Counted from the first letter of the stretch, positions 1 through 1,043 are shown. The stretch: DNA of 9,373 nt from a virus (IMGVR_UViG_2529293142_000001:1-9373), one strand, 5' to 3'. The notes: a model not told the origin generated them from the sequence alone. Made by a program: numbers and translations.

Positions 1-151
1 TCATCCGGCTTTTACCCCACCGCAATATGAAATTCCTGCATCTTTATTGACCTTCCCGCGCCCGGCGTGCAGCATAAAAAACAACAAACACATAACATAA
101 ACAGCAACTATGTTTAACCTCATTGGTTGTTTTTTTGAACAATAATATGAG

Positions 152-538
152 TCAAGTAATTTCATCATTGTGGTGCTGTATATGGTGCCTGATTTTATTT
201 AGCAACTCTTCTAAGTTTCTTGATCTTAGCAAGGTAATACCAGTGAACTTAAAGATCATGTTTACTTTTTGATCTCTATCAACTCTATCAGGAAGATCGT
301 GTGAATAGTCATCAAGTTCAATTGCACATATGATTGAAAAATCATTTTTATTAACAATCAAAAAATCTATATGATATTGAGATATAGACCTAAATGCTTT
401 TATAAATGAATTATATTGAGTGTTCTTGTCAAATATAGGAACGATAATGTCTACCATTCTAACCTGTGAAAACACAAAAAAGTCCTGATGAAATTCATCA
501 TAAATCAATTTAAAAAAGCGACGTTCGCGATTGCTCAT
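152..538 (-). CDS. Hypothetical small protein, DUF2726-like / PD-(D/E)xK nuclease-like fold (128 aa)
   Basis: ATG at 538..536, TGA at 154..152. Motif block HIDFLIVNKNDFSIICAIELDDYSH...RDQKV...GITLLR matches my recollection of the DUF2726 pattern (VDFLI...IELDG.SH...RD..K...GI.LLR). Local sequence is much more AT-rich than the phage genes (about 25% GC in a 60-nt sample at 301..360). No clear Shine-Dalgarno upstream. Domain call is from memory, not a search. Confidence 0.45.
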   Translation of the reverse strand: MSNRERRFFKLIYDEFHQDFFVFSQVRMVDIIVPIFDKNTQYNSFIKAFRSISQYHIDFLIVNKNDFSIICAIELDDYSHDLPDRVDRDQKVNMIFKFTGITLLRSRNLEELLNKIRHHIQHHNDEIT

Positions 539-960
539 GAAATTTTTCTTTTGATAGAACTGGAATGCATCATACTGAAGTGTATGAGATTTCTTTGATG
601 TTGCTTTATAATTAAAGAGAGGAGGGGCATAATTTGGTGTGTTATCTGGAGCATGGTGTAACGTCTTATGTATACTTTCTTTTTTAGTTTTTATCTGTGA
701 GTCCTCGTATTAATGAATATAATGCCAAAAATAAAAGATAGAAAAAAATAGAGCTATAACTGAAAGTAACAGGGCAAGAGGTATTTGCCATAAGGGGATT
801 TTGGGAAACATAAAACGATCCTACAAATGAAAGGGGCGATATTATATGGTAAAAAAACGAAGATTAATACAATGAATCGGTAAGATTTTAAAAGATATCA
901 ACGTTAATACACTGTATTTAGATATAGTATTATGAACAGTTTATATAAAAGGATTATAAG

Positions 961-995
961 AAGGTCGCGACAGGAAAATATCCTAAGGCGACCTT
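961..995 (-). terminator. Possible weak intrinsic terminator downstream of the secretin gene
   Basis: Perfect 8-bp inverted repeat AAGGTCGC (961..968) / GCGACCTT (988..995) with an inner 4-bp stem AGGA/TCCT (972..975 / 981..984). On the minus strand the hairpin lies about 50 nt after the gene IV stop and is followed by CTTATAATCCTTTTAT, which is AU-rich but not a clean U-tract. Confidence 0.25.
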
Positions 996-1043
996 AGAGT
1001 GAGGAGACAGACATCATTTGATGTGATTATCCGGCTTAACAGC

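Follow-up and report, generated by a model that had tools for sequence, protein, structure and literature searches.

A disrupted DUF2726 gene at the end of an Escherichia coli filamentous prophage and its intact, membrane-anchored relatives as candidate entry nucleases

SNIPE is a nuclease bound to the membrane in an N-out/C-in orientation, which cleaves phage lambda DNA while it is being injected and turns toxic if it loses the anchor (Nature 2026, PMC13190303). The DUF2726 family (PF10881) has been placed beside Vsr and DUF559 in the PD-(D/E)xK superfamily (Steczkiewicz et al., 2012, PMC3424549) and was noted by the Aravind group as a DNase of the restriction endonuclease (REase) fold that is fused with defence-type N-terminal domains (PMC3710099); our literature search on DUF2726 found no experiment on any member. 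Two further systems bear on the locus described here, namely the accessory or hypervariable loci called pHVRs, which filamentous prophages have in the interval from zot to the lysogeny module (PMC12715192, PMC11630473), and the filamentous phages that integrate by an IS110 transposase, known as Nf/MDA in Neisseria (PMC7058167). Here we analyzed a stretch of 9,373 nucleotides (IMGVR_UViG_2529293142_000001:1-9373; the whole stretch is hereafter called the window), which is an inovirus-type filamentous prophage of Escherichia coli with its genes read on the minus strand. The gene under study encodes a DUF2726 protein and lies at the end of this prophage. The window copy is disrupted; its intact relatives encode a protein that we tentatively propose to be a membrane-tethered nuclease acting on incoming DNA.

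The DUF2726 domain is encoded by an open reading frame (ORF) of 128 amino acids at 152..538 on the minus strand. A preliminary description, made from the sequence alone, had reported a DUF2726-like motif in this ORF, and a hidden Markov model (HMM) search indeed assigns it to PF10881 with 82.4 bits and E=2.8e-23 (gathering cut-off 24.7 bits), the match spanning positions 5-113 of the 126 in the profile. A weak secondary Pfam match to REase_MTES_1575 was under the cut-off of that family, and the NERD family, which had also been suggested, gave no match in the Pfam scan at E<=1. The AlphaFold2 model of the intact protein, built on an alignment of 52 sequences, has a mean predicted local distance difference test score of 85.8; its parts are a helix over residues 7-48, a disordered segment (49-74) and an alpha/beta domain modelled with confidence. 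The modelled DUF2726 domain resembles the DUF559, EDxHD and Vsr nucleases and is predicted to have a restriction-endonuclease-like alpha/beta core of the Vsr/DUF559-like PD-(D/E)xK fold. HMM search and fold agree with the published placement (PMC3424549), and both uphold the assignment to a nuclease family of the PD-(D/E)xK type made in the preliminary description. Of the motif residues, E97 and D150 do not vary among 52 relatives, and conservation is 90% or higher for E166, D168, D169 and H172. All of these are present in the window ORF, in whose own numbering the motif residues are E5, D58, E74-x-D76, D77, H80, R85, R88 and D89, following the conserved pattern E...D...ExDD..H..R..RD. A sequence search of the PDB gave no meaningful match.

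All aligned phage and plasmid homologues are built alike, with a short N-terminus followed by one hydrophobic helix, a basic linker that varies, and then the DUF2726 domain. The N-terminal hydrophobic 19-mer is found in 83 of 99 full-length relatives, in which the median number of lysines plus arginines is 1 before the hydrophobic segment and 3 in the following 15 residues. Positive charges are thus concentrated after the helix, and the DUF2726 domain is therefore predicted to be cytoplasmic. It is highly probable that the intact protein of about 220 residues comprises a single transmembrane helix (predicted N-out, C-in), a disordered basic linker of about 45 residues and a cytoplasmic DUF2726 domain. 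Compared with PF10881 as a whole, this inovirus and plasmid subfamily adds the conserved N-terminal membrane anchor and the disordered linker, and it is found chiefly in inoviruses and conjugative plasmids, in contrast to the wider family, most of which occurs elsewhere.

In its predicted layout the intact DUF2726 protein parallels SNIPE, both being single-gene products in which a short N-terminus in the periplasm leads through one transmembrane helix to a nuclease domain in the cytoplasm, and both combining a highly variable N-terminal region with a conserved nuclease domain. The two differ in the nuclease itself, which is of the GIY-YIG type in SNIPE and PD-(D/E)xK/Vsr-like in the DUF2726 protein. 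SNIPE further has a DUF4041 domain that binds DNA and the tape-measure protein, for which the Pfam scan gave no counterpart in the DUF2726 protein, and it is an elongated multi-domain protein as opposed to one of about 220 residues. Because of the different nuclease fold and the missing DUF4041 domain, the DUF2726 protein is not a member of the SNIPE family; it is a possible functional analogue. The intact protein would be a nuclease tethered at the cytoplasmic face of the inner membrane, where it would cut DNA as it enters, be it that of superinfecting filamentous phages, single-stranded DNA (ssDNA) arriving by conjugation or phage genomes being injected. Through its tether, the nuclease would be kept off the chromosome and the resident element, and the gene would act as an exclusion or defence moron of benefit both to the lysogen (or plasmid host) and to the phage. 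We regard such a membrane-tethered exclusion or defence nuclease as a plausible function that falls somewhat short of being probable. The features that we count for it are the catalytic-type motif, the tether, the mobility of the gene, purifying selection, the depth of the alleles, recurrence in other elements, dispensability and the SNIPE precedent.

The copy in the window is a C-terminal remnant of such a protein. The preliminary description had taken the ORF for a small protein of 128 residues; the ORF exists as described, and it is 100% identical to the C-terminal 128 residues of the intact 220-residue protein P0002. Upstream of its Met1 the same frame extends to an ATG at 811-809, preceded 8 nucleotides upstream by an AGGA Shine-Dalgarno-like motif (822-819), and is interrupted by a stop codon at 710-712. 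Three-frame translation and DNA alignment with intact alleles place the disrupted 5' part of the gene, encoding the transmembrane helix and linker, at 539..811 on the minus strand. The roughly 500 bp that had been described as non-coding therefore shrink to 812-1043, which is the only true intergenic DNA. Related prophages have a DUF2726 protein of 219-225 residues annotated at the matching position. For comparison we used L006, L007 and L008, three independent contigs with the same intact allele (220 residues, P0002). Against these alleles, the A/T run at 742-748 has lost one base (A7 in the window, A8 in the intact alleles) and the runs at 680-692 are two bases shorter, and the in-frame stop at 710-712 therefore follows from two homopolymer insertions or deletions (indels). 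A fourth contig, L009, has only the first of these, that in the 742-748 run, in common with the window.

The reliability of these indels was judged against contig AFDY02000019.1 (L022), to which the window is 99.5% identical with 15 indels. Most of the latter break the rep and IS110 genes (window 6528-9373, at 7149, 7346, 7557, 7610, 7645, 7657, 7743, 8172 and 9154), both of which AFDY02000019.1, a later version of the same contig, has in unbroken form (667 and 325 residues). Prophage decay as an explanation for the split rep and IS110 ORFs was hence rejected; these breaks are sequencing or assembly errors, and the window derives from an indel-prone version of the AFDY02000019.1 assembly. The indels in the DUF2726 gene are probably real, since they are kept in the corrected version and one of them also occurs in an unrelated assembly, the alternative being residual homopolymer error. 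Because it retains only an anchor-less 128-residue domain ORF without a Shine-Dalgarno sequence, the window copy, lacking anchor and linker, is most likely inactive or silent.

The 128-residue ORF might instead be a genuine short soluble isoform that starts at the internal methionine. This methionine (MSNRER or MTNRER) is kept in all E. coli alleles, and RefSeq annotates the 128-residue product as a 'DUF2726 domain-containing protein' (WP_000071026.1), while other genomes have a 126-residue product. However, the internal ATG at 538-536 has no Shine-Dalgarno motif upstream, unlike the full-length start, and the upstream frame belongs to the same gene, broken by the homopolymer indels. The 128-residue form is confined to the single contig AFDY02000019.1, as opposed to 157 contigs with intact 220-residue forms (127 and 30 contigs for the two forms), and by analogy, SNIPE without its anchor is toxic (PMC13190303). 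A soluble isoform is therefore improbable.

Comparison of junctions located the boundary between host and phage at 104|105, with the DUF2726 stop codon (152-154) lying 47 bp inside the phage, so that the gene does occupy the prophage edge, as had been described. The AT-rich island had been drawn as 1-1043; the portion 105-1043 is phage DNA, and 1..104 is host DNA, the conserved spacer between ybiB and hcxB, which is present at 95-100% identity in 5418 of 5426 complete E. coli genomes. The conserved prophage terminus CAACTATGTTTAA (105..117, minus strand) lies at the opposite end from the IS110-family transposase gene. In phage-free strains, ...ACATAAACAG continues directly into GAGTTAACCATG, and in the window ACATAAACAG runs into CAACTATGTTTAA; the empty site of the phage-free strain SK1144 reads ...AAACAG|GAGTTAACCATG, in which the ATG is the hcxB start. 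The insertion at hcxB splits the hcxB Shine-Dalgarno sequence, and the phage end CCAG restores AGGAG.

IS110-type phages with a terminal DUF2726 gene were found at five chromosomal sites. These are ybiB/hcxB (the window, JNE070796, 2015C-4136CT1 and others), yjhF (strain 700481), a site adjoining eutG (L006), yoaA/yoaB (E. marmotae) and hcaE/hcaR (strain E200086, with gene and phage located between the two genes). The junction was read at the first four, where CAACTATGTTTAA adjoins differing host DNA and the host flank ends in AACAG every time; inward of this terminus, the alleles diverge after about 13 nucleotides. The phage ends are precise, being CAACTATGTT... and ...AAACACACCAG, with right-hand junctions read in L001 (about 21603), L003, L004 and L016. 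The whole inovirus thus behaves as cargo of an IS110-family element, and the carrier resembles Nf/MDA (PMC7058167) in that one end of the inovirus bears the IS110-family transposase, its junctions are precise and target-specific, and it uses several target sites with a common short motif; this likeness concerns the carrier and not the DUF2726 gene. An Rfam search of the transposase-proximal non-coding end gave no family match. On contig L022 the DUF2726 end adjoins ybiB, and the transposase end adjoins the yoaA-side flank, as in E. marmotae, and not hcxB; these mismatched flanks imply either a chimeric assembly or an exchange between two prophage copies by recombination or inversion.

The same junctions leave practically no room for the view that the island is conserved host DNA merely adjoining the prophage. 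Positions 1-104 are truly host, but phage-free genomes join ...AAACAG to GAGTTAACCATG with nothing equivalent to 105-1043, and the gene is present together with the phage at yjhF, eut, yoaA/yoaB and hcaE/hcaR. The comparison across related prophages suggested in the preliminary description thus shows the gene to travel with the phage, and neither of the two outcomes that the description had named as contrary to it, a missing PD-(D/E)xK match and an island of conserved host DNA, was found. We are confident that 105-1043 is the distal end of an IS110-integrating inovirus-type prophage, carrying one accessory gene after the terminator-like hairpin of gene IV.

All seven IS110-type phages inspected carry the DUF2726 gene, which lies directly after gene IV and, in the circular form, adjoins the IS110 end. 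Sister phages exist whose morphogenesis and replication proteins are 88-99% identical and which have neither the IS110 transposase nor the DUF2726 gene. In one of these, L005 (strain EC12), no relative of the DUF2726 protein turned up by tblastn, and the spacer between gene IV and rep (L005 8064-8919) contains dif-like inverted repeats of the XerCD type, AGTGCGCACAATGACGTTATGTGTAAA ... CACATTATGCGCACTG, which suggest XerCD-mediated integration like that of CTXphi. In another, L147, IS110 and DUF2726 genes are not annotated, and other unnamed genes follow the outermost gene IV. These sister phages (L005, L147) occur as tandem arrays. The E. coli phage backbone therefore comes with two alternative integration modules, and the DUF2726 gene, missing from the dif-type sister phages, is accessory and dispensable.

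This dispensability bears on the idea that the protein is a membrane-located endonuclease for the element's own DNA, which would trim, resolve or nick replicative or transfer intermediates where ssDNA enters or leaves the cell. The carriers do move as ssDNA through envelope machines (inoviruses, in which the gene adjoins gene IV or zot, and conjugative IncF plasmids, in which it adjoins the tra/finO end), the domain is under strong purifying selection, and there is a weak similarity to DNA distortion polypeptide 3 (DDP3) of IncX plasmids (E=3e-5 to 5e-4). DDP3, for which papers mentioning it gave no mechanism, was the only NCBIfam match, and its 20-25 bits are far under the cut-off of 140 bits. 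A role in the element's own DNA metabolism also fits poorly with sister phages that do without the gene, and alleles only 55-71% identical within near-identical backbones would be unexpected for a co-adapted core function. We consider such a role unlikely.

The divergence of the alleles was compared with that of the backbone in the E. coli and E. marmotae phages. The DUF2726 proteins share 55-71% amino acid identity, whereas identity is 87-99.6% for gene IV, Zot, Rep and the transposase, the lowest Zot pair standing at 87%. Synonymous sites are saturated between DUF2726 alleles, with a proportion of synonymous differences (pS) of 0.63-0.81 versus 0.06-0.37 for gene IV, and the ratio of non-synonymous to synonymous substitution (dN/dS) is 0.05-0.10 on the DUF2726 domain. 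Where one allele was compared in two copies from differing chromosomal sites, about 5% of the synonymous sites and none of the non-synonymous sites had changed. Positive selection on the gene was rejected, given dN/dS values of 0.05-0.25 and saturated synonymous sites. By these sequence measures, the intact gene appears to be old and functional, with alleles swapped between young backbones, and, the window copy excepted, looks neither fast-evolving nor decaying.

In composition, the sharp drop after the secretin gene that had been reported is real, the GC content being 0.312 over 105-1043, 0.520 in gene IV (1044-2273) and 0.490 in the remaining phage. Elsewhere in the phage, the lowest 939-bp segment does not fall below 0.344. 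The low-GC island is not unique, since a second AT-rich tract (GC 0.31-0.38) at about 3600-4400 covers g6 and the 3' part of g3. Every DUF2726 allele has a GC content of 0.29-0.31, against 0.48-0.56 in the backbone. Such AT-rich, foreign composition, together with deeply diverged alleles between conserved flanks, would be compatible with a selfish nuclease, either a free-standing homing endonuclease of the Vsr/EDxHD type that spreads by copying itself into the slot after gene IV in related phages or a toxin-like effector of addiction or abortive infection. The EDxHD homing endonuclease I-Bth0305I has the Vsr-like catalytic domain that is also predicted for the DUF2726 protein. Unlike I-Bth0305I, however, the DUF2726 gene is intergenic at a phage end, with no intron or intein context, and its product begins with a membrane helix and disordered linker in place of an N-terminal DNA-binding domain. 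A membrane anchor in 83 of 99 relatives fits poorly with an enzyme that seeks a target site. Nor is there a simple presence/absence polymorphism at a fixed site, as 7 of 7 IS110-type phages carry the gene and the dif-type phages differ over the entire intergenic module, and no antitoxin-like ORF adjoins the gene. A selfish nuclease of either kind is very improbable. Vsr itself is linked to a cytosine methyltransferase, and the DUF2726 gene is not.

Homologues in other elements extend the candidate entry nuclease beyond E. coli. Six V. cyclitrophicus Tubulavirales records have homologues (34% identity) directly after gene IV, and Vibrio phage Vaf1, whose complete genome is deposited, has its homologue directly after the ORF in the gene IV position; the Vaf1-type gene IV strongly matches the secretin profile built here. 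In f237-like prophages of V. parahaemolyticus (L019-L025) the DUF2726 gene adjoins zot and stays constant while its neighbours, Kiwa (KwaA/KwaB) or a KAP-family NTPase, are interchanged. Two papers characterize this V. parahaemolyticus slot as an accessory locus of filamentous prophages that is hypervariable and defence-rich (PMC12715192, PMC11630473). The E. coli locus likewise occupies the slot of the pHVRs, following the last morphogenesis gene and preceding the integration module, and shares with them a foreign composition and exchange between backbones. The pHVRs hold a changing set of systems, whereas the E. coli IS110-type phages inspected have the DUF2726 gene alone every time; DUF2726 is not mentioned in the two pHVR papers (PMC12715192, PMC11630473). 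Among 39 IMG/VR contigs with a DUF2726 relative, almost all of 5-17 kb, 38 have Zot and 33 a secretin.

On plasmids, the architecture of transmembrane helix, linker and DUF2726 domain occurs in 4413 PLSDB records, 3923 of them typed as conjugative. In the two IncF records inspected, the gene lies between finO and the repA genes: at 5923-6513 in L013, with hha and a thermonuclease gene as neighbours, and at 5902-6552 in L014, beside genes of the PIN-domain and phospholipase D families. The plasmid gene is sometimes labelled 'yihA' and was mixed up with the chromosomal GTPase YihA in one paper. We also rejected the idea that DUF2726 and the IS110 transposase are functionally linked, as the gene occurs without IS110 in Vibrio inoviruses and IncF plasmids. 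A wider proposition, which we put forward as doubtful, is that membrane-anchored DUF2726 proteins are a widespread single-gene entry-exclusion nuclease of elements that spread as ssDNA (Escherichia and Vibrio inoviruses, F-like plasmids). Under it, they could conceivably amount to a second, independent solution of the SNIPE type, with a Vsr-like nuclease and outside the current defence catalogues, which is likewise speculative.

Several observations weigh against an entry nuclease. The topology is predicted from models and charge distribution, and it is we who infer that incoming DNA would be cut. PADLOC-DB v2 returned no family at E<=1 for the 128-, 219- or 188-residue alleles, and the only match in PHROGs was to an unannotated family. 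The window copy is disrupted and so does not act as an entry nuclease here. Deep allele divergence together with purifying selection shows module exchange and not an arms race. The defence neighbourhood is guilt by association in one Vibrio lineage, and the position on IncF plasmids is at the last-transferred end, which is uninformative on exclusion. In the broad DUF2726 family, finally, an inovirus marker lies nearby at only 3 of 80 loci from diverse species, counted with home-made profiles of limited sensitivity on relatives found with a 7-sequence alignment. By this count, DUF2726 as an inovirus-specific family in general was rejected.

The intergenic DNA upstream of the DUF2726 gene falls into two parts. 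The segment at 812..954 (minus strand) is AT-rich (GC 0.26) and allele-specific, aligning poorly with the JNE070796 allele, and is presumed to contain the DUF2726 promoter; a consensus scan gave no convincing sigma-70 promoter match on the minus strand and no downstream terminator for the gene. The segment at 955..1043 (minus strand), directly after gene IV, belongs to the conserved backbone, and a match to 955-1100 at 85% persists even in relatives in which the DUF2726 allele has diverged too far to be matched. It contains a hairpin at 961-998 followed by a T-rich tract, terminator-like in the scan, which separates gene IV from the DUF2726 gene. The predicted RNA fold of 930-1045 on the minus strand has an energy of -30.6 kcal/mol (z=-5.3), and none of 200 shuffled sequences was as stable. 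The hairpin is a candidate gene IV terminator or packaging signal; its position presumably corresponds to that of the gene IV terminator and packaging signal of the Ff phages. Rfam scans of the window and of 1-1100 found no RNA family in the region.

Gene IV (1044-2273, minus strand), the last morphogenesis gene, is the secretin gene that the preliminary description had taken it to be (PF00263, E=7.9e-25), and its product is 98.8% identical to the prophage gene IV protein of strain 2015C-4136CT1. Its neighbour, identified in the Pfam scan, is gene I, encoding Zot (2384-3595, minus strand). The other genes of the window are small virion genes and one for a P2 gpA-like replication endonuclease, and the IS110-family transposase gene lies at the right edge. 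Gene III (3972-5438, minus strand) contains a long Gly/Ser-rich tandem repeat at 4468-4815, where the GC content peaks at 0.66; the length of the g3-like repeat differs by 27 bp between two assembly versions.

Taken alone, the window is more ordinary, holding an annotated and broken DUF2726 gene at one end of an E. coli filamentous prophage of a rare kind; the RefSeq DUF2726 annotation and accessory loci in filamentous prophages are already known. The interest lies in a possible uncatalogued entry-exclusion nuclease common to inoviruses and F-like plasmids, for which the locus offers natural controls: intact alleles that have diverged deeply on near-identical backbones, one allele broken by nature, and sister phages that lack the gene. 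Should the intact protein prove to serve exclusion or defence as a nuclease, this would give a function to a DUF present in thousands of clinical IncF plasmids and many filamentous prophages, and it would extend the principle of cutting DNA on entry to a new nuclease fold and to non-lytic phages.

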